This document shows, piece after piece, positions 226 to 56,179 of a stretch of DNA of 64,000 nucleotides. Source of the stretch: an uncultured Prevotellaceae bacterium. Its GTDB lineage: Bacteria > Bacteroidota > Bacteroidia > Bacteroidales > Bacteroidaceae. Position 1 is the first letter of the stretch. The number at the start of each line of letters is the position of its first letter. The position numbers were made by a program, and so were the translations under genes. The DNA is taken from assembly GCA_900316985.1 (NCBI GenBank), contig ONFE01000040.1, positions 1,039 to 65,038 on the forward strand, in the 5' to 3' direction. The notes below the pieces were generated by a model. The model ran no database searches. It was given only the letters and a program-made list of their open reading frames with translations, and was not told the DNA's origin.

Positions 226-324
226 TTCGCGTGCAAAGATAGCAAATAATTCATAATTAATAGTTTATAGTTCATGGTTTTTCTTTTTTTTGCCTTTTTA
301 CTTTCTTACTTTTTTACTTTTTAC

Positions 325-332: not shown

Positions 333-337
333 CCGCC

Positions 338-1438: not shown

Positions 1439-1442
1439 CCTC

Positions 1443-2207
1443 TTATTCAAACTCATCGAGCATATAGATGGGGAGCATCATGCCGTTGAGCTCATAAACG
1501 ATAGGGCGCAACTGGGCGGCCCATATCTTATAGCCTATCTTCGTGATGTGAAGGCCGTCAGCGCTGAGGGCGGGCATCAGTTGGTTGCCGTTGCCGCGGG
1601 TGAAATGGGAGAAGAGGTCTATGTAAGGGATATCGGTGAGTTGGCAGTATTGCTTCAGTTTCTCATTGATGCGTGGAATGTCATCGGTCTTTCCCGTCAG
1701 CGTTTTCCAACGGCCGTTGCTCTCGTTGATGGGGAGCAGGCTCTCTACGTAGAGCTTGGTCTCGGGAGCCTCCTTGCGGATGCGGTCGATGAGTCGCTGC
1801 ACGCGGTTGAACACTTGTTCAGGCGTGAGATTGTGACTGAGGTCGTTGATGCCGCACATCAGGAAGATGGCACGGGGCTTTCCTGGCAGTATTTGGCAGA
1901 GGCGTTCCGACATTCCCTCCGCAGTATCGCCGATGATGCCGCGATTGACCACGTTGTCCACCTGCAGACGTTCATTCCAGTTGCCGCCGTTCTCGGTAAG
2001 ACTGTTGCCGAGCATCACGATCTGCGTGGAGTCGATGGGTTCCATACGCTCGAACTCCGCCACCCGTTGGTTGTAATGGCGTGAAGAGGTGTAACTGACG
2101 TGAGTCACCTGAGCGTTTAAGTGAAGCGTAAAGAGTGAAGCGTGAAGAATTGCCATTGCAATCATCACTACCATTCTCTTAGACAACTTCTTTTTATAAT
2201 TGCACAT
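1443..2207 (-). CDS. SGNH/GDSL-family esterase, secreted
   Basis: Blocks MLGNSLT, NRGIIGD, GINDL, DGLHI; N-terminal signal peptide. Confidence 0.85.
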   Translation of the reverse strand: MCNYKKKLSKRMVVMIAMAILHASLFTLHLNAQVTHVSYTSSRHYNQRVAEFERMEPIDSTQIVMLGNSLTENGGNWNERLQVDNVVNRGIIGDTAEGMSERLCQILPGKPRAIFLMCGINDLSHNLTPEQVFNRVQRLIDRIRKEAPETKLYVESLLPINESNGRWKTLTGKTDDIPRINEKLKQYCQLTDIPYIDLFSHFTRGNGNQLMPALSADGLHITKIGYKIWAAQLRPIVYELNGMMLPIYMLDEFE

Positions 2208-2275
2208 GCTTGTAAGTTTTTGAGTCTTTGAGTCTTTCTCATTTTCTCAATATCTCAATTTGTCATTAGAGTACT

Positions 2276-2740
2276 TTACTCCTCGCTTTTTGCTTTTTGC
2301 TTTGCCTGCTGCTTCATCACGCTGCGCACGCGGTTGACGAACTGCTGTGAGCCTTTGATGGTGTAGCGGATACCCATCTTCCAGATGCGACAGGCTTTGT
2401 CGATGTCGTTCTCAGGATTGTATTTCGACATGATGGTGACGAACATTTCCTTTGATTTCTGGCGACTGAGACGGTCGTTGAGCGTAAAACGGCGGCTGTC
2501 ACCACGGCTTCTCATGATGTCGTTGCATTCACGTACAAGCACGGGGGCAATCTGGAGCACGCCTAAGTATTGGCCGTTGCGGGCTGTCTCAATACCACGG
2601 CTCTCAATCTGGATGATGGCATCCATCACGGGGTTCCAGTCGAAAGTATCTTTCTGCTTGTCGTCCTGTGCAAAAAGGGGCAGGAACAGTGCCAGCATCG
2701 AAAGCAGCATCAGACTGCGTAGTTTACTTGAATGTTTCAT
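2276..2740 (-). CDS. Secreted lysozyme-like / lytic transglycosylase-domain protein
   Basis: Signal peptide; AIIQIES (catalytic Glu-Ser) followed by GVLQI, the SLT/lysozyme-like signature. Confidence 0.65.
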   Translation of the reverse strand: MKHSSKLRSLMLLSMLALFLPLFAQDDKQKDTFDWNPVMDAIIQIESRGIETARNGQYLGVLQIAPVLVRECNDIMRSRGDSRRFTLNDRLSRQKSKEMFVTIMSKYNPENDIDKACRIWKMGIRYTIKGSQQFVNRVRSVMKQQAKQKAKSEE

Positions 2741-2770
2741 TTTCTTCGTTTTTCGGTTAGGGTTTCTCTT

Positions 2771-4300
2771 TTAGAATTGGAAATAGATGAAGGGCTGGAT
2801 GTCGGAGGAGCGCACCTGAATGATAATATAGATGACAGCGGTCAGCAGCAGGGCGTGGACCACGACACCAGAACGAGAGAGAATGGCTGTCATGCGTCGC
2901 TGCCAGGTGTATGGTAGCCAATGCGAGATTAGCGCAAAGGCAATGAGTGCAAACACGAGGCGGAATGAGTCAATGACAGGCCAGAAGTATTCGGGATGTA
3001 GTTCAAGGAAAATATTGTGAAGGATGATGCTCCACTGGCTGATGTCGGTAGCACGGAACATAATCCATCCTAATACGCAGAAATGGAAGGTGATAATCAC
3101 GGCAAAGAAGCGCTTGACGCCATGGCTGCGGTAGCGGCGGTCATGATGGAGCACCTCCTGACTGAAGAGCTTATGGGCAACCACACCCAGACCATGCCAG
3201 GCACCCCAGATGATGAAGTTGAAGGCAGCGCCATGCCAAAGTCCGCAAATCAGGAAAGTGAGGAAGTTGTTCAGATAGGTACGGAACTTCCCCTTGCGGT
3301 TGCCGCCCAAAGAGATATAGAGATAGTCGCGCAGCCAGGAGGAGAGCGAGATATGCCACCGGCGCCAGAATTCCGTGATGGAGGCGCTGGTATAGGGGGC
3401 GTTGAAGTTCTGCGGGAACCGGAAGCCCAGCAGCAGGGCTATTCCGATGGCCATGTCGCTATAGCCGGAGAAGTCGCAATAGATCTGCACGGTATAGCCA
3501 TAGACGCCCAGAAGCGTCTCGATGCCGGTATAGAGGGCGGGATTGTCGAAGATACGGTCCACATAGTTGAGCGAGATATAGTCGCTGATGACGGCTTTCT
3601 TGAAAAGACCGATGAGGATGAGGAACACCCCTTCGCCCATCATACGGGAGGTAATGGTGAGAGGACGGTGGATCTGCGGTACGAATTCGCGGGCCTTGAC
3701 GATAGGGCCTGCCACCAGTTGTGGAAAGAAACTCACGAAGAAGGCATAGTCGAGCAGTCTCCGGAGCGGTTTGACATGGCCTCGGTAGATGTCGATGGTA
3801 TAGCTCATCGACTGGAATGTGAAGAAGCTGACACCCACGGGCAGGAAGATGTCCCACGGCTGGAAGTTGTTGCCTATGATCTGGCTAATGGAGCCGAAGA
3901 AGAAGTTGGTGTATTTGAAATAGCAGAGTAGGGCGAGATCGATGACCATACTGAGGGCCACCATCCATTGAGCAGCCCGTTTGTGCCCCTCGTTGCGCAG
4001 CCGTCCCACCTGTGCGCCGATAAGCCAGTCGCTGATGGTGACCACAGCCAGCAGGAAGAAATAGAAACCGCTGCTCTTGTAATAGAAATAGTAGGAGAAA
4101 AGCGTCACGAACAACAGGCGTGCCGTGGTGTGGTGACGCAGGAGCATATAGACAAACGTGAAGGCAAGGAACATGAACAGGAAGAGTCCGCTTGAGAAAA
4201 TAAGCGGATGAGCAGCATCGTAGGTGAGTTGCTGGATTAGCAACTCAGGCTGCAGATACTGCGTCATAAACTGCCATTTTTCCTGTAATTCTTCGAACAT
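2771..4300 (-). CDS. MBOAT-family O-acyltransferase (AlgI/PatA/DltB-like)
   Basis: Polytopic membrane protein with LPVGVSFFTFQ, FFPQLVAGPI, FSGYSDMAIG, EFWRRWHISLS, GLWHGA. Confidence 0.92.
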   Translation of the reverse strand: MFEELQEKWQFMTQYLQPELLIQQLTYDAAHPLIFSSGLFLFMFLAFTFVYMLLRHHTTARLLFVTLFSYYFYYKSSGFYFFLLAVVTISDWLIGAQVGRLRNEGHKRAAQWMVALSMVIDLALLCYFKYTNFFFGSISQIIGNNFQPWDIFLPVGVSFFTFQSMSYTIDIYRGHVKPLRRLLDYAFFVSFFPQLVAGPIVKAREFVPQIHRPLTITSRMMGEGVFLILIGLFKKAVISDYISLNYVDRIFDNPALYTGIETLLGVYGYTVQIYCDFSGYSDMAIGIALLLGFRFPQNFNAPYTSASITEFWRRWHISLSSWLRDYLYISLGGNRKGKFRTYLNNFLTFLICGLWHGAAFNFIIWGAWHGLGVVAHKLFSQEVLHHDRRYRSHGVKRFFAVIITFHFCVLGWIMFRATDISQWSIILHNIFLELHPEYFWPVIDSFRLVFALIAFALISHWLPYTWQRRMTAILSRSGVVVHALLLTAVIYIIIQVRSSDIQPFIYFQF

Positions 4301-4337: not shown

Positions 4338-5717
4338 CTATTCATATCCCGCCATTAGGGAGGCCATCATCTTGGTTGCCAGCAATCTGCCGCCGCCGTA
4401 GGAAGGATGCGTGTAGTCGTGGCCTACCATTCGGCGATTCACAAGTTCCGCTATACTGTTGCGCCCGCCCATCATCTGGAAGAAATTGAGAAAGGCCACC
4501 TTGTTCTCCATCGCAATGCGCTGTTGGCAGGCCACCATTCCCTCCACGCCCCTCATGGTGACGATCTGGCCGTTCTGACGACTGCCACGGTCGGGCATGC
4601 TCACAACGAGGATGGAAGCATTAGGATAGGCCCGCTTGAAACGGCTGATGACGGAACCCATTTGCTGCTGGTAGTGGCTGAACCACTTGCTGCCAGAATG
4701 CTCATTGACGGCATTGAGGCCAAACTGCAGGATGATGAGGTCGTAAGGGTAGAGGCTGTTCATCTGACTGAGCGTTTGTTCTGGAATCTTGGAGAGCGTC
4801 ATTCCTGCACAGCCGCGCATCGAGAAGTTATCCACCGAAACTCCCTGATGAGGTTCGAGTGAGGCACCATAGAAGATGGTGGAGGCGTTGGAGCCGTTGA
4901 TGTTCCATTTTACCCTCGACATAGGGCCGTCTACATGCACCTCCTGGATATTGGGAGCGGCTTCGGCATAGAAGGTCTGCGGCTCGCCGTTGATGGTAGC
5001 CGTGATGGTAATAGGTTCTTCGGTACGGAAGAAGAGAGAGGCGCGGTCCCAATGGTCGAGATTCTTGCGGTATTTGGTGCCGCTGTAGGTGAGCGAGGCA
5101 TTGCTTTCTGCCTTGAAATAACGCTGGGAAGGACCGAGCAGGGCGCTGTTGTACTGTTTCTGGACAACGGCATAGGAACCGAAGCCGGAAGGTTTCTGCA
5201 CAACCGTGGGGCGCAGACTGTTGGACGTCTTGCCGCAGTCTACCCATCCCACGCCGCTGCCGCCGAACTTCTGTTGTAGTTGTTCACGGAGGTCGCAGAC
5301 CAGGATATCACCCTCGATATAGGAGTCGCCCCAGTAGCCCACTCGCACTGGACGGTCCATGTTGTTCACGTTGTCAAGGGCAGCATAGAAAGACTCCATT
5401 CCGTGGACACTGCCTTCGGAGTAGTCTTCTACAGGCGTCACTCCTTCAGGAATGGGAGCGTGATGGCGAAGGGTATCAGTCTCGGCGTTCTGCAGGGAGT
5501 CATTGCGGGCAAAGAGTTGCTTCATGGGCATGACCACGGCCGTGTCCTCCTTCTCCAGATTGTCATTGCCATAGACCTCTGGAATCACGTCGCTCAGGAT
5601 GTTGACGGCACGCAGGTGACGGTCCCAGACGGTAATCTGGGGCAAAAAATGCATGGCAAGAAGCAAGATGGTTACCAAAGCAACGAGTATAAACGTCTGC
5701 GCAGGCCTGTTACTCAT
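4338..5717 (-). CDS. Periplasmic SGNH-family O-acetyltransferase/esterase (PatB/AlgJ-like partner of the MBOAT)
   Basis: N-terminal TM; motifs GDSYIEGD, GLNA, DYTHP. Start trimmed to MSNRPAQ (5717). Confidence 0.75.
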   Translation of the reverse strand: MSNRPAQTFILVALVTILLLAMHFLPQITVWDRHLRAVNILSDVIPEVYGNDNLEKEDTAVVMPMKQLFARNDSLQNAETDTLRHHAPIPEGVTPVEDYSEGSVHGMESFYAALDNVNNMDRPVRVGYWGDSYIEGDILVCDLREQLQQKFGGSGVGWVDCGKTSNSLRPTVVQKPSGFGSYAVVQKQYNSALLGPSQRYFKAESNASLTYSGTKYRKNLDHWDRASLFFRTEEPITITATINGEPQTFYAEAAPNIQEVHVDGPMSRVKWNINGSNASTIFYGASLEPHQGVSVDNFSMRGCAGMTLSKIPEQTLSQMNSLYPYDLIILQFGLNAVNEHSGSKWFSHYQQQMGSVISRFKRAYPNASILVVSMPDRGSRQNGQIVTMRGVEGMVACQQRIAMENKVAFLNFFQMMGGRNSIAELVNRRMVGHDYTHPSYGGGRLLATKMMASLMAGYE

Positions 5718-12167: not shown

Positions 12168-14620
12168 ATGAGTATTATTAAGAATGTCTTAGCAGTAGTA
12201 TTATTAGCCGTGGCAATGCCCGGCCATGCACAATTGGTAATCAACGAGATAACGAGATTATGCAGTCGAACATCGAGTGCATGATGGATGATATCCACGA
12301 GTTTCCCGATTCGTGGGTGGAACTCTACAACCCTACGGATGAAGCCATCAGCCTGAAGGATTATCAGATCAGCAACAAAAACAAGGTGAAGAAAGCCTGG
12401 CAGCTGCCCGACAAGACCGTTGCTGCCAAGGGCTATGTGTTAGTGTATTGCGATAAGGAGGGCCTGGAGAATAACCGTCTGCATGCTGACTTCCGTCTGG
12501 AGTCGGCCAAGGGCTGTACGGTATATCTCTTCAAGGACAAGAACGCGGAGCCTGTCGATAGTCTCCCTTACGTTGACAATAAGCCCATGGTAAAGATGCC
12601 TGCTCCCGACGTGGCATTCGGCCGTAAGACCGATGGTGCCGACGAGTGGGGCTACCAACTGACGCCGACGCCAGGCAAAGCCAACACTGGACAGACCTGT
12701 AACGCCAAGCAAATACTGGGTGCTCCCGTATTTAGCGAATCCGGTCGTGTCGTCAATTATGGCCAGAAGTCTATCAGTGTTGAGCTGAGTCTGCCTGAAG
12801 GTGCGCCTAAAGAAGCTTACATCATCTATACCACCGACGGAAGTGAGCCTACTGCCACCGGTAAGAAGTACACGGAGGCTTTCCATATCACTGAGTCGAC
12901 AGCAATTCGCGCCAAGGTATTCTGTGAAGGCTGGCTCTCACCGTTGAGTACGGCTCAGTCGTATATCTTCCACGCAAGGAAAATGACTGTTCCTGTTTTC
13001 TCTATCCAGACTGATGACAGGTATCTGAACGACAAGGAGATCGGCCTCTTCGCTAACAATAATAGCAAGGAAGACAAGAAAACACACGACTGGCGCCGTC
13101 CCGTCAACGTTGAGTTCTTCCCCGTTGAAGGTGAACCAAGTGCTATCAATCAGCCTGGTGAGACACGTATCCAGGGTGGACAGTCGCGAAGCAATGCGCT
13201 GAAGTCGATGGTGTTCTATGCCAACAAACGTTTCGACCCCGACCACAAGCGTTACTCCTATGAGTTCTTCCCCGATCAGAAACCTGACATCACAGAGTTC
13301 AAGTCGTTCTCCCTCCGCGATGGTGGTAACGACTTCACCGACCTCTATTTCCGTGACCTTATCGTGCAGCGCACGATGGCCTCCCATGTGGATCTCGACT
13401 GGCAGGCAGGCCATACGGCCGTGCTCTACATCAATGGCGAATACATGGGCATGCTCAACATTCGCGAGCGTTCGAACGATGACAACATCTACAGCAACTA
13501 CAATGGGCTGGAAGACATCGACATGGTGGAAATTGGCCACGAGACGGAAAATGGGCAGAATCTGTTCATCGAGGAACTCAAGGCCGGCGACGACAAATTC
13601 TACAATGACTTCAAAACCTTCTACAGCGAGAAGGGCCACACACTGGCCGAATATGAGCAATGGATGGACGTCAACGAATACTTGAACGTGATGGTGATGA
13701 ACCTCTTCTACGGCAATATCGACTTCCCCGGCAATAACATCGTCTTTTGGCGTCCCAACGACGATGACAAGGACTCAGGACTGCCCAAGCGCTGGCGCTT
13801 CATCGTGAAGGATACCGACTTCGGACTCGGACTCTACGGTCGTCAGAACAATTACAACACCATCGACCTGCTCTATAACCCTAACAAATATCCCAGCGAC
13901 AACTGGGCCTTCACCGAGCCCGCCACACGCCTCATTAAAAACATGCTCGAAGATCCCGACATACTGAAGCTATTCATCGACAAATGCTGCGTCTATATGG
14001 GCGACTTCATGAACGGCAAGGGCACCGGCGAGATCATCGACCTCATCAAAGCCGAGGCTATGGAGGAATTCGTGGCCCATCGCGACAAGTACAATCCAGG
14101 ATGGGGCTGGTGGCCTACCGACAATCGCGCCGACATCACGAATAAGTTCAACGATGCCAAGAATTGGGCCAACGGCCGTCCTAACAATTTCTACAAGTTC
14201 ATCGGCGACCAGTGGAAACTGGGCTCACCCGTGGCATTGGCCATCAATAAGACCAAGCAGGACGTTACGATCACCGTCAACGGCATCGAACTTTCTGGCA
14301 AGACCTTCGACGGCAAGTTCTTCCCCAACCGCGAACTCGTCATCAAGGGTACAGCTACGGAAGGAAAGACCGTGACGGGATGGAAGCTCAGCGGTGGAAA
14401 GACGGAAGAAGTATCGGGTAGCGAACTGACGCTCGATATGACTTCTAGTGCCCTGACTATTGAACCCATCCTCGGCGATGCTTCCGGTATTCAGACCATT
14501 GAGAGTCCTGCATCGGCTATCGAAGATTCTGCCATCTACGACCTGTTGGGCAACAAGGTGAAGACCCCGCAGAGGGGCCGCATCTATATCCAGAATGGAA
14601 AAAAGATTATCTGGCAATAA
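12168..14620 (+). pseudogene. CotH kinase-family protein 1 (lamin-tail-like N-domain, T9SS-type tail), frameshifted by an 8-bp duplication at 12243-12258
   Basis: Signal peptide MSIIKNVLAVVLLAVAMPGHAQLVINE from 12168. Removing one AACGAGAT copy joins it to ORF 12260-14620 (IRERSND, DFPGNN, KDTDFG). Confidence 0.8.
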
Positions 14621-14627
14621 ATAAAAC

Positions 14628-17072
14628 ATGAAAAAACTCCTGTTTCTCCTGACAGCCGTTTTCGGCGCTGTCTCACCAAGTCATGCACAGTTGATTATCA
14701 ATGAACTGATGCAGTCGAACATTGACTGCGTGATGGATGATATCAACGAGTTTCCCGATTCGTGGGTGGAATTGTATAATGCAGGTACCGCGGCCGTGAA
14801 TCTCAATCAGTACAAACTGGGCGTCAGCGACAAGGCCGGCGAGGCCTGGCAGTTGCCCAACCGTACGGTGCAACCCAAGCAGTACATCCTTATTTATTGT
14901 GATAAAGAGGGTACTGGGCTTCATACCTCGTATCGCATCGACTCCGGTAAGAGCGACGGTATATGGCTGTTTCAGAACGAAGAAATAGCCGATTGTGTTT
15001 TAAAACTCAAGAAACAGCCTGCTCCTAATATCGCCTATGGCCGCGAGAACGACGGTGGTGAGAAATGGGGTTATCAGGCCACGCCCACACCGGGAAAGGC
15101 TAACTGTGGCAAACTCTGTTCCGAGGTGTTGGGTGACCCTGTTTTCAGCAAGGCAGGACAGGTGTTTGCTAATGTCGGGAGTTTCAACCTGACCATCTCT
15201 TTACCGGCAGGTTCCCCTGAAGGCACGGTCATCCGCTACACCACCAACGGTTCTGAACCTACGGCCTCGAGTACCGTCTTTAGCAGTGCCATTAATATCG
15301 GGAGCACCACGGTGGTGCGTGCCAAACTCTTCTGCGATGGCTATCTCTCACCCCGTTCCACCACTCAGAGTTATATATTCTTCCCCTCAAACCGCGCGCT
15401 GACGCTTCCTGTGGTCAGTATCGTCACCGACGACAGGTATCTGAACGATCCCAAGATAGGAATCTATGTGGATGGCACTTACCAGAGCGGTACGGAAAAC
15501 TACAGGTTCGATTGGCGCCGCCCCATTAATTTCGAATATTTCGAAACCAAAGGGAAAGCGAGCGAACTCAACCAGCTTTGCGAAACGCGCATCCAAGGTG
15601 GTGCCACGCGTACAAACCCTTTGAAGTCACTAGCCGTCTACGCCAACAAGCGTTTCGGCGAGAAGAGATTCAGTTACGAATTCTTCCCTGATCAGAAGCC
15701 CGGCCTCACGGAATTCAAGAGTATTGTGCTCCGCAATGCCGGCAACGACTTCGACTATCTCTATATGCGCGACATCATTGCCCAGCGCACGATGGCTTCG
15801 CATGCAGATCTTGACTGGCAAGCCTGGCGTCCAGTCATCATCTATATCAATGGCGTCTATAAAGGTATTGAGAACATCCGAGAACGTAGCAACGAAGATA
15901 ACATCTATACCAACTACGACGGACTGGAAGATGTGGATTTGGTTGAAAACTGGAATGACCTCAAGGAAGGTGACATGGAACACCTGAATGCCTTCAAAGC
16001 CTTCTACAATGAGCACAACCATACCATGGCTGAATATGAGAAATGGGTGGATTGTCAGGAGTTTATCAACCTCATGGCTATGAACGCCTATTATAACAAC
16101 ATCGACTTCCCTGGTAACAACATCGTCCTTTGGCGTCCCCGTACTGCTGAAGGTCGCTGGCGTTTCATTGCCAAGGATGTTGATTACACCATGTGGCTCT
16201 ACGGGCAGGACAACTATAATTATAAATACTTCGATTGGCTTTATTGGAAAGAATACGACGGCAACCATAACTGGGGAGCCAACGACTATGAGGCCACTCG
16301 CCTGTTCCGTCGCCTGATGGAAGACGCCGATTTCAACCGGGAGTTTATTGATCACATGGCCGTCTATATGGGCGATTTCCTCAATTACGAAGGAACGTGG
16401 AAGGTATGGGAACCCATGTACAACCAGATCAAGACCGAATATCCCTATCATCGAAAACTATATAATGAGTGGTGGCCTAACTATAACGATGAGATGAATA
16501 AGGTAAAGGAATGGTTGCAGAAACGCACAGCCTTCATGTACCAGCATCTGGCCGATTACTACAAACTGGAGTCGCCAAGGACGCTCATCGTGAATCCTTC
16601 GCTCAGTGAAGAAGACCTTCAGGCGGTGCAGTTTACCTTCAACGGTATACCCCTTTCCGAAGGAAAGTTCAATGGCGAGTACTACCCTAACCGTTCAGTC
16701 ATCCTCGAAGGAACAACCGTTGGCAACAAGAAAGTAACAGGATGGGAAGTGACGAAAGACGGTGTGGTTACACGTGTGGACGGCTCTCGGTATAGATTCA
16801 CCATGACATCAAGTAACGCTTTGGTCATCAATGCCATTTTGGAAACTGATACGGGCATCGACGAAGTGGCAAAGCCTGCTTGGTCGTGGCAGCATGCCGA
16901 CGGACAGCTTACGCTCAGCGGCCTTTCTGAAGGAACTCCCGTTAGTCTCTATGATGCTGGTGGTATACTCATCAGCCGGCAAACCGCCGACGGTGCACAA
17001 TTGCAGTTCAAGGCTCCCGCCCGTCGCGTCTATATTCTGAAAGTAGGTAATGAATCAATTATAATCAGATAA
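14628..17072 (+). CDS. CotH kinase-family protein 2, secreted, T9SS-type C-terminal domain
   Basis: Paralog of the upstream gene (QLIINELMQSN, DFPGNN, WRFIAKDVD); signal peptide; C-terminus YILKVGNESIIIR. Confidence 0.85.
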   Translation: MKKLLFLLTAVFGAVSPSHAQLIINELMQSNIDCVMDDINEFPDSWVELYNAGTAAVNLNQYKLGVSDKAGEAWQLPNRTVQPKQYILIYCDKEGTGLHTSYRIDSGKSDGIWLFQNEEIADCVLKLKKQPAPNIAYGRENDGGEKWGYQATPTPGKANCGKLCSEVLGDPVFSKAGQVFANVGSFNLTISLPAGSPEGTVIRYTTNGSEPTASSTVFSSAINIGSTTVVRAKLFCDGYLSPRSTTQSYIFFPSNRALTLPVVSIVTDDRYLNDPKIGIYVDGTYQSGTENYRFDWRRPINFEYFETKGKASELNQLCETRIQGGATRTNPLKSLAVYANKRFGEKRFSYEFFPDQKPGLTEFKSIVLRNAGNDFDYLYMRDIIAQRTMASHADLDWQAWRPVIIYINGVYKGIENIRERSNEDNIYTNYDGLEDVDLVENWNDLKEGDMEHLNAFKAFYNEHNHTMAEYEKWVDCQEFINLMAMNAYYNNIDFPGNNIVLWRPRTAEGRWRFIAKDVDYTMWLYGQDNYNYKYFDWLYWKEYDGNHNWGANDYEATRLFRRLMEDADFNREFIDHMAVYMGDFLNYEGTWKVWEPMYNQIKTEYPYHRKLYNEWWPNYNDEMNKVKEWLQKRTAFMYQHLADYYKLESPRTLIVNPSLSEEDLQAVQFTFNGIPLSEGKFNGEYYPNRSVILEGTTVGNKKVTGWEVTKDGVVTRVDGSRYRFTMTSSNALVINAILETDTGIDEVAKPAWSWQHADGQLTLSGLSEGTPVSLYDAGGILISRQTADGAQLQFKAPARRVYILKVGNESIIIR

Positions 17073-48629: not shown

Positions 48630-48703
48630 GATACTTACGCTCGGCAAAGCAAAAATAAACTCGTTTCTTTTTGCATTTGTGCTCGCTTATATGTATCTTT
48701 GCA
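48630..48703. repeat. Promoter-linked palindromic element upstream of pdxK
   Basis: Reverse complement TGCAAAGATACATATAAGCGAGCACAAATGCAAAAAGAAACGAGTTTATTTTTGCTTTGCCGAGCGTAAGTATC resembles 10405-10480. Confidence 0.65.
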
Positions 48704-48709
48704 GCCGAA

Positions 48710-49528
48710 ATGGCAAAGAAGCAGATATTACTCATCAACGATCTGGCAGGCTACGGCAAGGTGGCAACGGCCGCCATGCTGCCCATATTGAGTTATATGG
48801 GCTACCCAGTCTATAACATGCCCACGGCATTGGTGAGCAACACATTGGACTACGGGAAGTTCAATATTCTGGAGACCACCGACTATATGCAGGGCGTCTT
48901 TCCGGTTTGGAAAGAACTGGGGTTCTCTTTCGATGCCATCGCCACTGGTTTTATCTGTTCTGAAAGACAGGCCAAGATGGTATCCTCCTATTGTCGTGAA
49001 CAGGCAGAACGGGGCACGCTGATATTCGTGGATCCCATCATGGGCGACGAAGGAAAACTCTACAATGGCGTGACGGAAGACCGTGTGGAATGCATGCGCG
49101 AGATGATCAGTGTGGCACATCTCATTTTCCCTAACTACACCGAGGCAACCTATCTTACCAAGACTCCCTATCAGTCTGAAGGTGTCACCTATCGCGAAGC
49201 CCGTGAACTGCTCGATAAACTCCGTCGTTTGGGCACCCGTTCAGCGCTCATCACTAGCATCTTGGTGGATGGTCATCCGTCGGTGGTAGGCTTCAACCAT
49301 TACACCGGCAATTATTTCCTGCTCCCCTACGAGGAGATTCCAGTCCATTTCCCTGGCACAGGTGATATGTTCTCGGCCATTCTCATCGGTCATCTGCTTA
49401 AAGGAAAACCGTTAAAGGCAAGCACGCGCGAAGCCATGGATGCCCTCTATCGCCTCATCGACGTGAACAAAGACAACGAGGACAAGAACCGCGGTATCCC
49501 CGTGGAGCAGTGGCTGAGGCTGCTTTAG
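48710..49528 (+). CDS. pdxK: Pyridoxal/pyridoxamine kinase
   Basis: NDLAGYGKVA, VDPIMGDEGKLY, PNYTEA, FPGTGDMFSA; start trimmed to MAKKQ. Confidence 0.9.
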   Translation: MAKKQILLINDLAGYGKVATAAMLPILSYMGYPVYNMPTALVSNTLDYGKFNILETTDYMQGVFPVWKELGFSFDAIATGFICSERQAKMVSSYCREQAERGTLIFVDPIMGDEGKLYNGVTEDRVECMREMISVAHLIFPNYTEATYLTKTPYQSEGVTYREARELLDKLRRLGTRSALITSILVDGHPSVVGFNHYTGNYFLLPYEEIPVHFPGTGDMFSAILIGHLLKGKPLKASTREAMDALYRLIDVNKDNEDKNRGIPVEQWLRLL

Positions 49529-49542
49529 GAAATCTGAAACAA
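49481..49542 (+). repeat. Direct repeat copy 1 (pdxK 3' end)
   Basis: Matches 50258-50319 with 5 mismatches in 62 bp (2 in the first 50). Confidence 0.92.
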
Positions 49543-49548
49543 GGAATT

Positions 49549-49920
49549 TCAAAACACACCTACCCAACCGAATCTGCGTACTATTTCACGTAGAAGATTG
49601 CGGTCGCTAACCGGAATAGTGATAGCGATAGTCTCTTTCTCCTTACTGTTAGTTACTGCATTAGCAGATTCCAACTCATACTGCGTCTGTGCAGACAACA
49701 GAACCTTTGCAGGCAGTCCGATGGCCGATTCTATCTTTACGGCCAAGTCTGTTGTAAGCGCACGCTTGCCGTTCAGCACCTCACTCAGATGCGAAGCCTG
49801 AACACCAATCATCGTAGCGAAATCCTTCTGACTGATTCCGCGCTCCTTCAGTTCAGGTTTAATCATCATACCTGGGTGCACTGCCATGAAGGGTGCAGGG
49901 TTCTCATTTTTTGTTTCCAT
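49549..49920 (-). CDS. higA: HigA-family antitoxin (XRE HTH)
   Basis: AVHPGMMIKPEL, HLSEVLNGKRALT; overlaps the upstream toxin stop. Confidence 0.88.
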   Translation of the reverse strand: METKNENPAPFMAVHPGMMIKPELKERGISQKDFATMIGVQASHLSEVLNGKRALTTDLAVKIESAIGLPAKVLLSAQTQYELESANAVTNSKEKETIAITIPVSDRNLLREIVRRFGWVGVF

Positions 49921-50170
49921 AATGTGTATCGTCTAAACTTAAAACCGTAATACTTATTCCACCGTCAAATTCTCTAAAAAGGATGCGCTCCACCATTCCG
50001 TTGACCACTCTGATGGGCAGGTCGCTTGCTGCGTCAACTAGTCGCATATAGTTGTATGCCGTGGCGAGCGCCTTCATGAACTTCGCATTACGGGTGTACT
50101 TTTTATATTTGCTGTTACGCCCCGTTGTAATCAGTTCTTCCAAGTCCCTGTCTTCAAAGACTATCTTCAT
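49904..50170 (-). CDS. higB: HigB/RelE-like toxin, apparently with an in-frame internal deletion
   Basis: MKIVFEDRDLEEL...IRVVNG.VERILF..DTHYG. Appears about 20 aa shorter than homologs as I recall them (unverified). Confidence 0.7.
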   Translation of the reverse strand: MKIVFEDRDLEELITTGRNSKYKKYTRNAKFMKALATAYNYMRLVDAASDLPIRVVNGMVERILFREFDGGISITVLSLDDTHYGNKK

Positions 50171-50257
50171 ATTATGCCGTATTTTTGTTTGCAAAAATAA
50201 GATAAAATTCCCAAATATGGGAATAGTTAACTAAATAATTACCACTTTTTAACTTAA

Positions 50258-50319: not shown

Positions 50320-50546
50320 ATATCCCGTCAGTTGGCAGGTTTATGCTGTCAGCAATAATGCTGCTATGATGCCAAGACCTTCCGCAGCAATCTTACCCTT
50401 CCATGAGTCATCAGTCAACTTGTGCTCGATGATGTAGTCACGCATTTTCGTTCACCACACTTTGCTTTGCAGTAATATCCATAGCGATTCATCGAAATAG
50501 GCAAACTCATTTTATGATTAAGGTGTCACTTACCTGACCCTTGACA

Positions 50547-51191
50547 CTATTGCAATATTAAGTTAAACTTTCCAACAATGTCAATTGAACCGTATTCTTC
50601 GTCGGGCAGATTCTTCAACCTGTACTCGCCAGTGTATTTCATATCCTTCCCGTCTTTGGAGGGAGTGGAATCAGTAAAAGTCAGGCATCCTTCCAACGCG
50701 GTGAATTCTAGGTCATCAGGCACTTTCACCCCCCCAACGCCGAGGGGTAGTTCGGCGGATTGGTCGGCCTTCATCTGTTCAAGCAGTTTCTGCTCGTAGT
50801 AGTTGCCCCCGCCAGAGTATGTGCGGTCTGTGAGCGAGCTGTACTGGATGGGGTATTCCTTCCCGATGACAGGGAAGTTCTCTCCATCTGTGATGGGGAT
50901 GCCAATGAGCACGAGCCAACTTTCGTGAATCGAGTGGGCCGTATTGTCACGTAGTACGAACTGGAGGTAGGCTACCGAGTCGTTGCTGATGAGGAACTTG
51001 CCAGAGCCGTGCAATGGGGTGCAAAAGAAACTGTTCGAAAGAGCCTCGGCAACCGTGAGATAATCTCGATACGCTTTGCCGTTGATGACAGCTGAGCCAA
51101 AGTTGGTTTCCTGTTCCAGCAGTTCATATTTTTTGCTGCATGCAGACAAGAGCATGCCTACGGTTAAGACAAGCAAATATGTTTTTTTCAT
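50547..51191 (-). CDS. Hypothetical lipoprotein
   Basis: Lipobox LSAC; no family recognised. Confidence 0.7.
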   Translation of the reverse strand: MKKTYLLVLTVGMLLSACSKKYELLEQETNFGSAVINGKAYRDYLTVAEALSNSFFCTPLHGSGKFLISNDSVAYLQFVLRDNTAHSIHESWLVLIGIPITDGENFPVIGKEYPIQYSSLTDRTYSGGGNYYEQKLLEQMKADQSAELPLGVGGVKVPDDLEFTALEGCLTFTDSTPSKDGKDMKYTGEYRLKNLPDEEYGSIDIVGKFNLILQ

Positions 51192-51207
51192 AAAGTAAAT
51201 TTAAGAC

Positions 51208-51576
51208 CTATAAGTTTACGTATCCCCAATAGCAGTGTTGGCCTTGGAATATCTCAATAATATAAGTTCCTGTAAGATATGAAGGTAATGTTATTCTTTG
51301 ACATCCGCCACCTATTATAGTAGCAAATTCCACTTCTCCATCTTCATTATACAACAGGACTTCACCTTCTTGGATTGAAGATAAGAAAATTAAGGAATGT
51401 TCTTCTATCCCAACTGATGGTGCTTTAACTGGAGATTTCCTAATGGGCTTAGCAGCATCTGTCGGATCAAGACTTCTTGTTTGAAGAATGATTTCTTCAC
51501 ATGTTACATGTTGCATATCTGCGAAACTATAGCAGACAAGTAGCAGTAAGCTAAATACTAATGTTAATCTTTTCAT
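51208..51576 (-). CDS. DUF3244-like small secreted Ig-fold protein
   Basis: Signal peptide; C-terminal ITLPSYLTGTYIIEI..YWGYVNL; sits directly downstream of a TPR regulator. Confidence 0.7.
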   Translation of the reverse strand: MKRLTLVFSLLLLVCYSFADMQHVTCEEIILQTRSLDPTDAAKPIRKSPVKAPSVGIEEHSLIFLSSIQEGEVLLYNEDGEVEFATIIGGGCQRITLPSYLTGTYIIEIFQGQHCYWGYVNL

Positions 51577-51738
51577 TTTTATAATGTTTTTTGTTTTGAC
51601 GATGCAAAGGTACAATGGTTATAGAATATAAGAAGTTTTGCCTTCATTTTCAGTAAGTCAAATGAAGACAAAAACAATAATACCCCCCTAAAATCAATTA
51701 TATATCAGGGAGTTGCAAAATTTTTAAGTCAGATTAAA

Positions 51739-53484
51739 TCAATCGGTCTTTATGAGCTGCAAGAGTCCGGCTTTTAGGGTCTGCGCCCCTTTCTCATTGA
51801 AGATTTTCTTATTGGCACGAGACTTTGCTGTTGTGACAGTTTGTGGGATTGAATCTGTTAGGTTGACTATGGCGCTATCTTCAAAGTCTAAGATTAGAAG
51901 CACACAGGCATGGAGTTCCAAAGGCGAAAGTTTCTTTTCTTTAGCAAGTACTTTATATGCATTCGGCATATCTTTACTAAACTGCATCTCCAATGCCCTC
52001 CATTCTGCTTTGTTTGGCACAGGGTTGTCTGATCTGAAATCCTTCTTCTTGCGAAACACCTCAACTATTTTGCTATTTTCGAAACTATTTAGATCATCAA
52101 TCGCGGATGGAAGTCCCGTGGCATCTGCAAGTTCTTCAATTGTCTGTTTCAGTTCTCTTCCCTTCTGTTCCTTTTCTGCAATAAGTTTCTTATATTCCCT
52201 GTCTTTTAGCCTTTGTAGTTCTTCTTGTGTATTTTGGTATTCCTTCTTTGCGTAGGCAAGAGATTCTGCCAACTTGCTTATTTTCTGCTGCTGCTTCCTC
52301 TTGTAGCCTCTGTAAACATAGAAAAGCAATATCCCACCCAAAGCCACAGATATGAGTATACCGATAATCCACAGACGCGCATTTCTGGCTTTCTGCGCTT
52401 CAGTCTCTGCTTCTTTCTGGCTGCGACTATAATTATAAAGTGCTGACATTTGGTGAATTGCATCAGTCTGCATTTTTTTGTGCAAAGAGTCAATTGAATT
52501 TTCGTATAGAATGGAATAGTGCATGACAGAATCTACATTCCTTTTTTCTCTGTAGATAGACAGCATGCCTTTGTACGCATCATTTAAATGCCCATATTCA
52601 ATTGCTTTTCTAAAATATCTCTCTGCTGATGCAGTATTGCTTATTGCCAGTTCGTAATATCCTTTTATGTTGTAATACGCTTCTCTTCCTCTTGCTATAT
52701 TTCCATCTTCGTTAAAAAGCCCAGACTCTTGTTCGAATATTTCCATTGCATGACGAGCCCTGACTAACTCGCCACGTTCAATATAAAGGTAAATTGATGC
52801 TACCAAGGCATCTGCAGCCTCCTTGTCTTCTCCTAATTGTTTCAGTGACAAATAGGTCTCGTTGATAATTTTTAAGATACTGTCTTTCTCATTCAAGAGA
52901 TAGTAAGGCCTCATCATTTGTTGCCTTGCAATTATATACTCCTTCGCTGTATCTGTTCTTCGTATATAATCAATATAATGCCTCAGAGCCCATATTTCAT
53001 CTTCTGGAAGATTTTGCTTATGGAATATCTGAGACATTTGGCCATATACAGCAATCAGCGTGTTATAATCGAAATCGGCTCTTGCCGTGTCAGCCGATTC
53101 TATAGCATCATAATAAGCCTGCAACGCCTCAGGGGCTTCACCCATATCGCTATGTACTCTTCCTAAAAGATAATAGGCAAGCATTCGTTCATTTGCGTCT
53201 TCACCCTTGTAGTACTTGACGACATCCTTTATAATCGAATCAGATGTAAATTGTACGTCAGCCTTGTTTTCTGCTTTCATTTTTACAAGTTCATAGTACA
53301 TTCTTTCACTCCTGCCCCAATCTTCCTTATTTTGTTCTAACCTCGTCAATACAACAAGTGCAGAATCTGGGTCGGTATCAGCAATCTTACTGACGACTTC
53401 TAACTGAGTTGTCACATTTTTGCCGTTGCATCCTAATAGGGCGACGACAATCATACTTATATATATGTAAGCAAGTCTCTTCAT
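51739..53484 (-). CDS. Membrane-spanning TPR sensor with a C-terminal LuxR-like HTH
   Basis: Lipobox LLGC, TPRs (AYYLLGRVHSD), TM helix, coiled coil, LSPLELHACVLI..TAKSRANKK. Start trimmed to MKRLAY. Confidence 0.75.
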   Translation of the reverse strand: MKRLAYIYISMIVVALLGCNGKNVTTQLEVVSKIADTDPDSALVVLTRLEQNKEDWGRSERMYYELVKMKAENKADVQFTSDSIIKDVVKYYKGEDANERMLAYYLLGRVHSDMGEAPEALQAYYDAIESADTARADFDYNTLIAVYGQMSQIFHKQNLPEDEIWALRHYIDYIRRTDTAKEYIIARQQMMRPYYLLNEKDSILKIINETYLSLKQLGEDKEAADALVASIYLYIERGELVRARHAMEIFEQESGLFNEDGNIARGREAYYNIKGYYELAISNTASAERYFRKAIEYGHLNDAYKGMLSIYREKRNVDSVMHYSILYENSIDSLHKKMQTDAIHQMSALYNYSRSQKEAETEAQKARNARLWIIGILISVALGGILLFYVYRGYKRKQQQKISKLAESLAYAKKEYQNTQEELQRLKDREYKKLIAEKEQKGRELKQTIEELADATGLPSAIDDLNSFENSKIVEVFRKKKDFRSDNPVPNKAEWRALEMQFSKDMPNAYKVLAKEKKLSPLELHACVLLILDFEDSAIVNLTDSIPQTVTTAKSRANKKIFNEKGAQTLKAGLLQLIKTD

Positions 53485-54031
53485 ATTCCGTTCATCCTTT
53501 GTTGATGGAGGCAAATATATGCCCAGTATTATTGGGGGTGCAAAGGTACTAAAACAATCCGAATCGGGCAACGATTTTAAGTTTATTAAGCGGTTCAAAG
53601 CCTATTTTGTGATAGTAAAGTTTGGTAGTTTCAAAAATTCTTCGTACCCTTCACCCGATGAAGGGTTATAGATTTAGGCTGGTAACTCTGAGTCGGAGTT
53701 CTTTGAAAGCAATCCAAAGCAGAACGTGGAATTGAGAACGGTTTCCAAATCGTAACCCACCACATTTCCCAATCCCCCGAACTGCCTTTATTTATTAGAA
53801 AGATTGCTTTTTCTTCCAAAATTACTGAATAAATCGGTTTTTCGCATATGCAGAGGTGTAATTTATAATTATTTAAATCGTCGGGGGATGTTGTAACTAT
53901 TCTGCACCCTCTCACTTTCTTAAACAAAAATCTTCAAAAACTAACACGACCCGGTTAGCGTTATGGTTATCGTTATCGTTAAAATAATGGGTTGTGTTAC
54001 TTTGAAAAATACTCTAACGAGAAATATGTTG

Positions 54032-54456
54032 AAAAATAGGTTAAGCCTACACTAATCAATGTATTGTGTTGGTCTATAGTGTGTTAAGGTATGTAGGCTG
54101 CCTACATAAGCCTACACTGAGCCTACACTATTGGCAGATTGACTTTCAAGATATAAGGGTTTTTCAGCGAAATAATGGTGTTATCCATTGGTTATCAAGT
54201 AGTTTTGAAATAGTTTTGATAATGAAAACTGGTAGTTTTAATGGAGAAAACTGTGAGTTTTGATGAGGAAAACTGACAGTTTTATTTGTTAGAACTGATG
54301 CAAACTATTACCAGAAAAGAGTTGAATGATGTGATATTGACCGCTAAAATGTAGAGTTAGTGTAGGCTCTATGTAGGCTTGTGTAGGCAGCCTACATTAG
54401 TTAACGCGTTTATTATGAATAGGTTAAGCGGGTTAGTGTAGGCTTAACCTATTTTT
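54032..54456. mobile_element. Non-coding element with composite 99-bp inverted arms (MITE-like)
   Basis: Perfect 24-bp IR (54032-54055 / 54433-54456), 35-bp spacers on both sides, and a 40-bp IR at 37/40 identity (54091-54130 / 54358-54397). No transposase or TSD seen. Confidence 0.6.
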
Positions 54457-54541
54457 GAAGAAAATCCTCAGAAAATTTTCTCATTGACAACAGCTCTGTT
54501 CGTCACCTCATTTTTGTCCACGGGATGGAATGGAGGAAAGG

Positions 54542-56179
54542 CTAGAAATCGGGAGCTTTCTGGAACTCCATTATTTCATCGGTCAGCGGATGGGTGAAAG
54601 AGAGGTATTCGGCATGAAGGTAAAGACGGTCAGAATGGAAACCGTAGAGGTCATCGCCAACAATCGGCATTCCCAATCCGTCTTGGTGGGCACAATGCAC
54701 ACGCAACTGGTGGGTGCGGCCGGTATGGGGTGTGAGCAAAACACGGTAATACGGTCCTTCCTGGCCGATAAATTCATAATCGGTCACCGCTGGTTTTCCC
54801 TCTTCGTAATCTACTACTTGTCGCGGACGGTCTAAGTAATCTGGGGCGAGAGGGAGAGAGATAACCCCCCTCTGACTCCCCCGAGGGGGAGGAAGAGAAC
54901 CACCCCTGCCCTCCCTGTTTAGGGAGTTTTTATCCGCTTCAGAAGTATTTTCTCCCTCCCTTTGGGAGGGATTAAGGGTGGGTTGTACCATTGCCACATA
55001 GCGTTTCTTCACTTCGCGCTGCTCGAACTGTCGCTGCAGTTGTTTATAGGCAAACTCGGTTTTGGCCACCACGATGATGCCGCTGGTGGCCTGGTCGAGC
55101 CGGTGAACCATCATAGGACCCGTTGCATTCGGGAAACGTTGGCGCATGATGTCGTAAAGCGAAATCTCTCCCGTGTTGCCTGGGACCGATAGCAGTCCTT
55201 CGGGTTTGACTACTACGGCTATTTGGTCATCAACGAAAAGAGTTTGGACGTAAACACCTGCTCCCTCCCTTCGGGAGGGCTGGGGTGGGCTTCCTCCCTC
55301 CCTTCGGGAGGGTAAGGGGTGGGCCAATTGCCAACTCAGTATAGGCTTGCACTTGCCGTTGCAGGCGGGATAGAACTGGAAATGATGGCGGATTTCGCGC
55401 TTCGGACTCTCTCCCCACCAGAATTCGGCAATGGCCAGCGGCTTCAGGCCATGCTGGAAGGCATACTGGAACAATTTAGGCGCACAGCATTCGCCTGTAC
55501 CGCCTGGCGGTAACGGGAACTTGCGCAACAGCTTCGGCGAATTATGGTAATCGCGCCAAATGTCCACCACATTGCGCACCTCTCCCTTATAATTAATAAG
55601 GTTGTATTGTTCGAAGAGCCAAAGCAGCAGGTCGTTTGACATCTGCTTGCGCTGGTGTTTGAGGGAAAGAAGCCCCCCTCTGTCCCCCCGAAGGGGGGAG
55701 GATTCGGATTCTGAAGAAAGATTCGATGGAACCTTCCCCCCTTCGGGGGGATTGAGGGGGGCTTGTAACGCTTCAATCTCCTTGTTTAGGGCGGAAATTT
55801 TTGCTTCGGTCTGTTTGAAATGGCCGTCGGGCTGTTGCGCATCGAATATGGGCGGAACGAACCAATCCCAATCGTTGCGGCCCGCCAACAGGCCGGCATA
55901 GGCGGCGAGGAAACTAACCCCCCTCTGACTCCCCCGAGGGGGAGCATCTTGAACGGGCTCTTGCTCTCCCCCTCGGGGGAGTTGGAGGGGGGTTACTATT
56001 AATACCCCGAACATTTCTCCTTTCTCGGCATCGGCCAAAAGCTCCTCGTGTGCGCGTACATATTTCTTTACCTCCTCGGCAGCTAACAGGCACAGGGGAT
56101 GCGGCTCATAGTTGAACGGGTTGTTCAGCTGTGAGGGCGGCTCGATGTCGGTTTGAAGCGGATGTACTCGCAGATTCAT
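54542..56179 (-). CDS. rluA: RluA-family pseudouridine synthase with Bacteroidetes N-terminal extension
   Basis: VVVKPEGLLSVPG, catalytic HRLDQATSG, TGRTHQLRVH, IVGDDLYG, LHA. Nine palindromic inserts. Confidence 0.92.
   Translation of the reverse strand: MNLRVHPLQTDIEPPSQLNNPFNYEPHPLCLLAAEEVKKYVRAHEELLADAEKGEMFGVLIVTPLQLPRGGEQEPVQDAPPRGSQRGVSFLAAYAGLLAGRNDWDWFVPPIFDAQQPDGHFKQTEAKISALNKEIEALQAPLNPPEGGKVPSNLSSESESSPLRGDRGGLLSLKHQRKQMSNDLLLWLFEQYNLINYKGEVRNVVDIWRDYHNSPKLLRKFPLPPGGTGECCAPKLFQYAFQHGLKPLAIAEFWWGESPKREIRHHFQFYPACNGKCKPILSWQLAHPLPSRREGGSPPQPSRREGAGVYVQTLFVDDQIAVVVKPEGLLSVPGNTGEISLYDIMRQRFPNATGPMMVHRLDQATSGIIVVAKTEFAYKQLQRQFEQREVKKRYVAMVQPTLNPSQREGENTSEADKNSLNREGRGGSLPPPRGSQRGVISLPLAPDYLDRPRQVVDYEEGKPAVTDYEFIGQEGPYYRVLLTPHTGRTHQLRVHCAHQDGLGMPIVGDDLYGFHSDRLYLHAEYLSFTHPLTDEIMEFQKAPDF
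54862..55995. repeat. Nine GC-rich hairpin elements at four in-frame sites in rluA
   Basis: 54862-54891, 54898-54926, 54952-54982, 55261-55290, 55294-55324, 55672-55700, 55732-55762, 55915-55944, 55964-55995. Confidence 0.9.

Follow-up and report, generated by a model that had tools for sequence, protein, structure and literature searches.

A gene-less, multi-copy iteron-type module beside a strain-variable island in a Prevotella genome and its relation to DUF6078/primase-helicase cassettes

The locus and its non-coding element

Within the 64,000-nucleotide stretch of DNA analysed here (the window; part of contig ONFE01000040.1, assembly GCA_900316985.1, from an uncultured Prevotellaceae bacterium, a rumen Prevotella), a strain-variable island lies between a pdxK-like gene (48671-49528) and an rluA-like gene (54542-56179). 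Between the cargo of this island and the 3' end of rluA stands a 503-bp non-coding element in which two inverted arms of short repeats face each other across an A+T-rich array of palindromes. In this report, we find that the element represents a real, multi-copy, selected non-coding module. It belongs in kind with iteron-type origins and is linked to DUF6078 and the BT4734-type primase-helicases, two families of Bacteroidales proteins that are uncharacterised. In all probability, the window holds an orphan copy of the module that belongs to the cassette formed by these two genes; by orphan we mean a module without a DUF6078 or primase-helicase gene beside it.

The window's own genome is termed G000 (3.7 Mb in 166 contigs, the window being contig C54). 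G096 is an uncultured Prevotella metagenome-assembled genome; G150, G211, G250 and G164 are other Prevotella genomes; and L-numbers denote extracted loci, with L009 and L010 being the module loci on contigs C78 and C81 of G000 and L062 that on contig C7 of G096. The parts of the element are as follows, in coordinates of the window.

53991-54493, no strand: the whole conserved unit (503 bp), very probably an orphan copy of the DUF6078/primase-helicase intergenic iteron module
54019-54055, plus strand: left outer arm, with a perfect core at 54032-54055 and the outermost GCCTACA at 54045
54083-54130, plus strand: left inner arm, a palindromic pair TGTAGGC-T-GCCTACA followed by two further GCCTACA at +10 and +11 bp
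54190-54204, plus strand: GGTTATCAAGTAGTT motif, directly left of the central array, recurring in modules with unrelated iteron words
54201-54283, no strand: A+T-rich central array, with eight AAAACT/AGTTTT half-sites that include three AAAACT-N3-AGTTTT palindromes at a 22-bp period
54358-54405, minus strand: right inner arm, mirror of the left inner arm (37/40)
54433-54469, minus strand: right outer arm, with a perfect core at 54433-54456 and the outermost site at 54437

An earlier note on this DNA, made from its letters alone, had described the element as 425 bp long. The element is real, but the conserved unit is larger. Its bounds are set by the metagenome locus L047, with which BLAST homology covers exactly 53991-54493 at 90% identity and gives way to unrelated DNA on either side, and the three paralogues in G000 align across the same span. 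The anatomy that the note had given for the repeats was reproduced: the outer inverted repeat (54032-54055 with 54433-54456) is perfect over 24 bp (24/24) and is extended by a repeat finder to 37 nt (86%), while the inner one (54091-54130 with 54358-54397) matches at 37 of its 40 positions and extends to 48 nt (88%). Terminal inverted repeats, a feature of miniature inverted-repeat transposable elements (MITEs), are thus present.

The heptamer GCCTACA is concentrated in the element, which holds 10 of the 15 matches in the window; the remaining 63.6 kb holds five, and about 0.03 would be expected per 400 bp. Each arm had been said to carry four such heptamers in one orientation plus one inverted, and the motif scan agrees: the left arm has plus-strand sites at 54045, 54100, 54110 and 54121 and a minus-strand site at 54092, an arrangement mirrored in the right arm. 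There are therefore five 7-bp iterons per arm, of which three recur every 10-11 bp and share one face of the helix, and the full series of spacings reads 47-8-10-11-[240]-11-10-8-47 (47 + 8 + 10 = 65). In the centre, the palindromes claimed at 54225, 54247 and 54269 are all present and are the sole AAAACT-N3-AGTTTT matches in the window, against 0.01 expected; their dyads lie 22 bp, or two helical turns, apart. The additional AGTTTT half-sites at 54201 and 54212 are likewise in place. The central array is 71% A+T, versus 50% for the window. A 65-aa open reading frame (ORF) at 54066-54263 was rejected as a gene because the paralogues differ there by indels that are not multiples of three.

Paralogous copies and conservation of the sites

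Whole-genome BLAST places three full-length copies of the module in G000: the window copy on C54, one on C78 (72% identity over 479 bp, E = 4e-57) and one on C81 (70%). With the motifs defined from the window copy alone, the columns invariant across the three copies make up 94% of the heptamers and 85% of the hexamers, against 36% of the remaining unit (Fisher p = 3e-27). In the three-way alignment, diverged spacers separate conserved blocks that coincide with the heptamers and hexamers. Because the motif columns are so much more constant than their surroundings, we read this as the signature of selection on putative binding sites, acting in all three copies, the gene-less ones included. It had been suggested at the outset that the element comprises multiple protein-binding sites with helical phasing. 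The conservation of the motifs among the paralogues, together with a spacing skeleton that is kept across lineages with different words (see below), speaks in favour of that suggestion.

Other features of the copies bear on their age and origin. Arrays of AACT-N3-AGTT phased at 22 bp occur in G000 only in the three module copies and once more on contig C105, apparently within coding sequence. The block TTGAAAAATnGnTTAAGCCTACA of the left outer arm is kept in 20 of 20 aligned copies. Left arms are closer to the left arms of other copies than to the right arm of their own copy; judged by these alignments, the divergence of left and right arms predates the split of the copies. No direct repeat is shared at the boundaries in either the 20-copy or the 7-copy alignment, in keeping with the earlier note's report that no target-site duplication is evident. 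The ends of the copies may read TGT(G/T)...(A/C)ACA.

The home cassette and modules with other words

The copy on C78 lies between two divergent genes, one encoding a 170-aa DUF6078 protein and the other a 713-aa protein with BT4734-like_N, VapE-like and DUF3874 domains, and it ends about 30 bp from the start codon of the latter (the primase-helicase). In G096, one of seven copies, that on C7, has the same two neighbours (DUF6078 and BT4734_N + VapE + DUF3874). Between such divergent gene pairs in Prevotella, the intergenic module measures about 500-570 bp. The window copy has the two-inverted-arm spacing and the 22-bp dyad array, and it is homologous to the home copy, but it does not lie between DUF6078 and primase-helicase genes; its flanks are a cargo operon and the 3' end of rluA. 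In tblastn searches, relics of DUF6078 or primase-helicase were absent within several kb of it. We classify it as an orphan because neither cassette gene nor a relic of one is nearby. Beside the orphan copies generally, cassette-gene relics were absent except at L058. Because the orphan sites are under selection and have no cassette-gene relics, any protein that binds them must act in trans.

When the home gap was located in other Prevotella species via DUF6078 homologues, the divergent genes proved to be separated by 500-620 bp with the same architecture and different words. The spacing skeleton of the GCCTACA family (G000 and G096), 47-8-10-11-[240/250]-11-10-8-47, is shared by no fewer than four further Prevotella lineages studied in detail, with a different repeat word. 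The modules compared are these:

G150: iteron word AGCCATCAT (GCCATCAT); spacing 65-11-11-[249]-65; centre GGAAACTGnCAGTTTCC
G211: iteron word AACGTCAC; spacing 65-11-[239]-11-11-65; centre GAAACT-N3-AGTTCC
G250: iteron word AACGTCAC; spacing 46-19-11-[269]-46, a looser fit; centre TAAACT-N3-AGTTTA
G164: iteron word AAGTGAAG; spacing a partial match; centre a 22-bp array
L094: iteron word GCCTTCA; spacing 65-11-[238]-11-18-47; centre GGGAACT-N3-AGTTCCC

Central arrays keep the 22-bp period in the GCCTACA, G150, G211 and L094 modules, and the central half-site word co-varies between lineages. The motif at 54190-54204 also crosses word families: near-identical strings occur in L094 (GGTTATCAAGTAGTT) and L092 (GGTAATCAAGTAGTT), and the three-copy alignment shows the motif to be missing from the C78 and C81 copies.

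This co-variation is the one observation that would favour a structured non-coding RNA gene, with the arms and the central palindromes as its stems, since the half-sites change in a manner that preserves pairing (AAAACT/AGTTTT, GGAACT/AGTTCC, GTAACC/GGTTAC). Dyad sites for a dimeric protein account for the same pattern. Moreover, within a genome it is the sequence itself that is kept, beyond what pairing demands; within one copy, the 35-bp spacer of the left arm is not complementary to that of the right, and the arms differ without compensation; no conserved promoter or terminator brackets the unit; and Rfam returned no match at E <= 1 within 54000-54500. We find an RNA gene scarcely credible.

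The other primase-helicase cassettes of G000 have their own 7-8-bp iterons at about 11-bp spacing. Four were located as follows:

G000 C37, about 1520-1660: GTTAGGG x5, directly after the helicase stop codon
G000 C3, about 1620-1760: GTGAGGTT x5-6, directly after the helicase stop codon
G000 C85, about 50440-50640: GTGATAG x5 in inverted arms, upstream of DUF6078
G000 C66, about 14540-14700: CTGCCAC x4 in inverted arms, upstream of DUF6078

Pfam matches in G000 number 10 for the BT4734-type family and 6 for DUF6078, and metagenomes hold more than 3,000 homologues of the primase-helicase. The distinct words suggest that one genome may hold about ten initiator/site pairs that do not cross-react.

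Distribution and orientation of copies

The GCCTACA form of the module is rare. A scan for the arm-motif pattern in one genome per species returned a single other record, G096, and the GCCTACA word is carried by 2 of the 301 genomes of the genus, G000 and G096. The seven G096 copies keep the arms and have the central word GTAACC-N5-GGTTAC at an unchanged 22-bp period. BLAST of the element's DNA across the genus matched its own genome only, plus one short central match in G013 without an adjacent cassette. A metagenome scan added ten copies, namely five orthologues of the window copy, three of the C78 copy, one of the C81 copy and one of a new type (L058) with the central word GGAACT-N3-AGTTCC. 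For each of the three G000 copies, related rumen strains keep an orthologue at the corresponding locus. No match to the element was found among viral contigs, plasmids and phages (IMG/VR, PLSDB and INPHARED). Related species are merely 65-67% identical even in coding DNA, so that intergenic sites are not comparable and a search for empty sites by DNA across species is impossible.

Gene-less copies are present in all four of the genomes tested, each with the iteron word of a home cassette in the same genome. Module copies number three in G000, seven in G096, six in G211 and at least three in G150. Five of the G211 copies are extra and gene-less, four of them being half-modules in which the number of 22-bp units varies, and G150 has at least two extra copies. 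In two orphan half-modules of G211, L087 (C11) and L086 (C4), the central arrays are expanded to 4-6 or more 22-bp units in place of three; judged from these, the centre of the module behaves as an unstable tandem repeat.

The module has the same orientation in eight European Nucleotide Archive (ENA) assemblies of the window locus and in all nine of the orthologous copies listed above, with assemblies showing the majority state only. No inversion is seen in 14 independent assemblies. Relative to its DUF6078/primase-helicase flanks, it is flipped between G000 C78 (L009) and G096 C7 (L062), as judged by right-arm spacer homology. This flip reflects either inversion of the whole module or its independent acquisition in each lineage.

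Some form of spread has occurred, as the family is multi-copy and dispersed. The earlier note had offered a MITE, or the fused ends of a deleted element, as one explanation; under such a hypothesis, the copy adjacent to the primase gene would be one insertion of a non-autonomous mobile element among several. Dispersal of the copies in unrelated intergenic contexts, the patchy distribution over the genus, the flip between C78 and C7 and the possible TGT(G/T)...(A/C)ACA termini would all suit this explanation. The absence of a target-site duplication in about 20 aligned copies does not, nor does the failure to find a parent: when the arms were used as BLAST queries against G000, as the note had proposed, copies on C78 and C81 were recovered, but the only matches are the three gene-less copies, with no ORFs between the arms in any of them and no other arm match in the genome. 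Absence from the viral and plasmid collections counts against it as well. The copies are also old (70% identity) and fixed at orthologous loci, and their arms had diverged before the copies split. Finally, every word family includes a copy in the gap between DUF6078 and primase-helicase with identical geometry, which chance insertion fails to explain. We therefore regard a mobile element of this kind as improbable. The note's opposite worry, that of a single-copy assembly artefact without relatives, does not describe the element, which is multi-copy and 100% identical in eight independent assemblies.

The variable island and its promoter

The DNA to the left of the module is exchanged between strains. 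Two features define it in the window:

50509-53813, minus strand: strain-variable cargo island, 59.6% A+T, with three genes of 581 aa (ENA call; 619 aa from the first TTG), 135 aa and 214 aa
53817-53824, minus strand: Bacteroidota-type -7 box TAATTTTG from a consensus scan, pointing to the cargo, at the homology breakpoint and about 167-170 bp from the unit

The three cargo genes (50547-53598, minus strand) have no family assignment, the sole hit being a sub-threshold one to TPR_MalT, and PADLOC returned no match for them. In orthologous loci, the same slot holds a C5 cytosine methyltransferase (L047 and L055) or one of two different Type III restriction-modification systems (L050 and L053); L057 carries the window's own three genes. 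Because the slot in other strains is occupied by Type II or Type III restriction-modification, the window's genes may constitute an undescribed defence system. L050, L053 and L055 become homologous to the window again at 53814-53854. The element had been said to mark the right edge of the A+T-rich accessory block; it is indeed near that border, but the block stops at about 53814-53854, leaving some 140-175 bp between it and the unit. On the other side of the element, L047 has a SusC/SusD pair inserted as well.

A -7 box equivalent to that of the window, TATTTTTGCA, occupies the same relative place in L047, L050 and L055. The Bacteroidota promoter consensus was reportedly defined by Bayley et al. 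in 2000 as TAnnTTTG. At the home copies, C81, L058 and the cargo side of the window copy, such boxes stand 30-200 bp beyond the ends of the module. Candidate promoters inside the unit were rejected, being near chance level and not conserved between paralogues. A 98-aa ORF at 53631-53927 was also rejected as a gene; no ENA assembly calls it, and it overlaps the promoter. Three independent ENA assemblies have a contig that ends at about 53690-53706, in the 5' region of the cargo, and one ends at 54120, inside the left inner arm; these ends fit strain heterogeneity or repeat-induced assembly breaks.

The C81 copy, too, is at a break in synteny, and all three G000 copies sit at synteny breakpoints beside swappable cargo (restriction-modification, polysaccharide genes and a nuclease gene). 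In L058 (positions 1-3943 of OCTX011910060.1), a 976-aa MmeI-type restriction-modification gene lies between a GGAACT-N3-AGTTCC module and the DUF6078 gene, an arrangement showing that the module/DUF6078 junction can accept defence cargo. Integrases and att repeats were absent from the flanks of every copy and cassette examined.

Position beside such genes raises the possibility of an inverton, in which a recombinase would flip the segment between the arms and so switch the adjacent defence or polysaccharide genes. A switch of that sort would have nested inverted repeats around an A+T-rich segment, with restriction-modification and polysaccharide genes, on which Bacteroidales invertons usually act, lying downstream; this is the arrangement here, and TAnnTTTG boxes at 54200 and 54211 face the centre; the opposite orientations of the module at C78 and C7 could be added to these. 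Yet the orientation is single in the eight assemblies and nine orthologues described above, with the same proviso on majority states, and no recombinase gene lies within 5 kb, as none of the ten ORFs spanning 48.7-58.9 kb has a recombinase domain. The two internal boxes are not conserved among the paralogues, about 0.7 such boxes would be expected by chance from base composition, and the cargo promoter at 53817-53824 is outside the repeats. We consider an inverton very improbable.

The cassette proteins

The literature search on DUF6078 and BT4734 found nothing beyond a classification: the BT4734-like_N domain belongs to the archaeo-eukaryotic primase (AEP) family (PMC5862659, PMC11724360). 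In the cassette's primase-helicase, the Walker A/B and AEP motifs are intact, and between species the protein as a whole shows 64-70% identity, rising to 80-89% in its helicase domain; from its sequence, the C78-type enzyme looks active. Residues 407-647 match the SaPI1 Rep1-DNA complex (PDB 7PDS; SaPI, Staphylococcus aureus pathogenicity island) at E = 1e-8 by sequence. The only significant fold matches of the AlphaFold model are two chains of that same entry (E = 6e-6, 405-424 columns), the model having a predicted local distance difference test (pLDDT) score of 54. The last ~60 residues are modelled as strand-helix-helix-hairpin with pLDDT 71-87, a topology that hints at compatibility with a winged helix. 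A Cys/His cluster, C-x4-C-x2-H-x2-C, is invariant in DUF6078 and might coordinate zinc. The protein has no sequence match in the PDB and no recognised DNA-binding fold (model pLDDT 51).

Among six cassettes compared, the AEP domains of G000 and G096, which share arms, are slightly more similar (75%, versus 62-68%), and the primase-helicases of the two are the most similar pair for G000. The DUF6078 proteins of these two genomes are the least similar pair (about 44-45%), and the two genomes also differ in the centre word. DUF6078 was rejected as a marker of the GCCTACA family, as genomes that use other words hold closer homologues (52-54%) than G096 does (44%).

The heptamer is also found in a second context. 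On G000 C63 (3130-3300) and C90 (1890-2010), loci L095 and L096, five direct GCCTACA and three TGCTACA at 10-11-bp spacing immediately follow a gene for a DnaG-type primase (zinc ribbon and Toprim) with a P-loop helicase extension, and are themselves followed by an A+T-rich stretch and small ORFs of unknown function; these contigs are short and probably repeated. Except for the P-loop, the DnaG-type protein is unrelated to the BT4734-type enzyme.

Discussion

On the most economical reading, the module is a docking platform of the iteron type, origin-like and with two specificities, and the window copy is such a docking site for the proteins of the cassette; we hold this to be somewhat more probable than its negation (about 0.55). 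Of the three options that the earlier note had listed, a replication site is the best supported, given that the home copy abuts a helicase with homology to SaPI1 Rep. In the mechanism that we propose, the primase-helicase encoded on C78 would read the arm iterons, probably via its Rep-like C-terminal domain, and a second specificity, for which DUF6078 is the best candidate, would read the central palindromes. Both proteins would act in trans on the window copy, and the outcome would be a nucleoprotein complex beside the promoter of a swappable defence cassette. We infer this assignment of proteins to sites from a weak correlation across six cassettes. For the consequence at the site, we infer unwinding and priming, transcriptional control, or both; at the window locus, the options for such a complex are unwinding and priming, control of the promoter about 170 bp away, or service as an anchor for cargo exchange.

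The closest known systems are the pri-rep-ori regions of SaPIs and other phage-inducible chromosomal islands. SaPI Reps are self-loading helicase-initiators that read 5-6-bp iterons via a C-terminal winged helix, and SaPI origins have 6-12 iterons beside rep, half on each side of an A+T-rich centre and in opposite directions (PMC9371898). Likewise, the enzyme encoded next to the home copy joins a primase to a Rep-type (VapE family) helicase and matches SaPI1 Rep1 in sequence and fold, the home copy's iterons lie beside that gene, the window iterons form two opposed sets around an A+T-rich centre, and each paralogous cassette has its own iteron word. The differences are also plain. The Prevotella module is about three times longer; a lone iteron stands 47 bp away from each inner cluster, the central dyads are phased at 22 bp, and the module lies upstream of the primase-helicase gene, between it and DUF6078, whereas the SaPI site is downstream of rep. 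In the Prevotella cassette, integrase, att sites and packaging genes are all lacking. Further, the window copy is without an adjacent rep gene, and Prevotella keeps complete gene-less copies elsewhere in the chromosome. We know of no description of such copies for SaPIs.

Phage P4 offers a second comparison. According to Ziegelin et al. (as reportedly described in 1993 and 1995), its alpha primase-helicase binds iteron clusters at both ori and crr. The crr site shares its replicon with ori, a few kb away, and is needed there in cis. The fusion of primase, helicase and initiator, the short repeated words and the existence of a second iteron cluster away from origin and gene are shared with the Prevotella system; the extra Prevotella copies, in contrast, are on other contigs, are full duplicates of the module and stand beside unrelated genes. 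The parC site of plasmid R1 consists of two sets of five 11-bp iterons that flank a promoter and are bound by ParR, its repeats being direct and contiguous over about 160 bp. It resembles the Prevotella module in having two sets of five short repeats about one helical turn apart around a central region, in the service of a large cooperative complex. The Prevotella arms, however, are inverted over some 500 bp, and no partition genes were found near any module copy. Correia/NEMIS and BIME/REP sequences are bacterial MITEs and mosaic intergenic repeats. Like them, the module is gene-less, intergenic, multi-copy and patchily distributed, with inverted ends and often near promoters. It differs in its lack of a target-site duplication or transposase partner, its low copy number (3-7), the age of its copies and an internal architecture that is conserved as putative binding sites and is common to a specific gene pair.

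The strongest rival is transcriptional control, in which the arms and palindromes would be operators for DUF6078 or for another regulator of outward promoters; the three copies would then form a small regulon linking a polysaccharide locus, a nuclease gene and the defence island. Two observations fit an operator as well as an origin and so also weigh against our preferred interpretation: the iterons are always immediately upstream of DUF6078, whatever the gene order, and an array of the central type precedes a DUF6078 gene that has no primase nearer than 5.5 kb. Canonical -7 boxes outside most module ends, the potential of the Cys/His cluster to bind zinc and the fact that G000 and G096 share arms while differing in centre and in DUF6078 are also consistent with an operator. 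On the other side, ten iterons and three dyads disposed with two-fold symmetry over 500 bp exceed known operators and match the layouts of origins. Further, DUF6078 lacks a recognised DNA-binding fold, and one side of the window copy faces the 3' end of rluA, which would leave half of a symmetric structure without a target. On balance, we judge both the operator and its regulon form to be unlikely, while taking them more seriously than any other alternative.

Other findings also tell against an origin-like docking site. The cassette is without integrase, att sites or packaging genes and occupies ordinary chromosomal contexts, in which an active extra origin would be unusual. The centre of the G096 family is less A+T-rich, and the half-modules among the extra G211 copies (four of five) mean that some orphans decay. 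Both AlphaFold models are of low confidence (pLDDT 54 for the primase-helicase and 51 for DUF6078), and the co-variation of proteins and iterons over the six cassettes is weak and inconsistent, with other pairs fitting neither pattern. GCCTACA may be read by two initiators or by a third factor. Because the word also follows the unrelated DnaG-type gene, we have lowered our confidence in the specific reader but not in the iteron platform.

If the docking-site interpretation holds, the element and its relatives are candidate binding sites, of fixed geometry and lineage-specific words, for BT4734-type primase-helicases and DUF6078. Both are abundant Bacteroidales families without an assigned function or DNA target. 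Given the place of all three G000 copies beside swappable cargo, an origin-like site might have a part in how such islands turn over or are controlled in gut and rumen Prevotella. A more speculative extension, to which we give little credence at present, is that hypervariable defence and surface-polysaccharide loci are bordered by "landing pads" on which the cassette acts in trans, and where loading of the initiator would trigger local unwinding, priming or replication. Such pads may promote recombinational exchange of cassettes between strains, or transient amplification or silencing. They would amount to a chromosomal system that uses no integrase to diversify defence genes or set their dosage, and that has no described counterpart.

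Other observations

Three further features came to light in the extracted loci. At L052 (positions 4782-5382 of LKMJ01022251.1) lies an unrelated tandem array with a period of about 60 bp and a TGTAGGC in each unit, which could be CRISPR-like or a satellite. At L010 (9332-9432, on G000 C81), a stretch of about 100 bp inside an Exo_endo_phos ORF has many copies, 86-100% identical, over contigs of G000 and G005. Lastly, the HTH_3 gene and its 96-aa partner that adjoin the pdxK-like gene of the window (49532-50255) are missing in L050, where homology jumps from 49531 to 50256.

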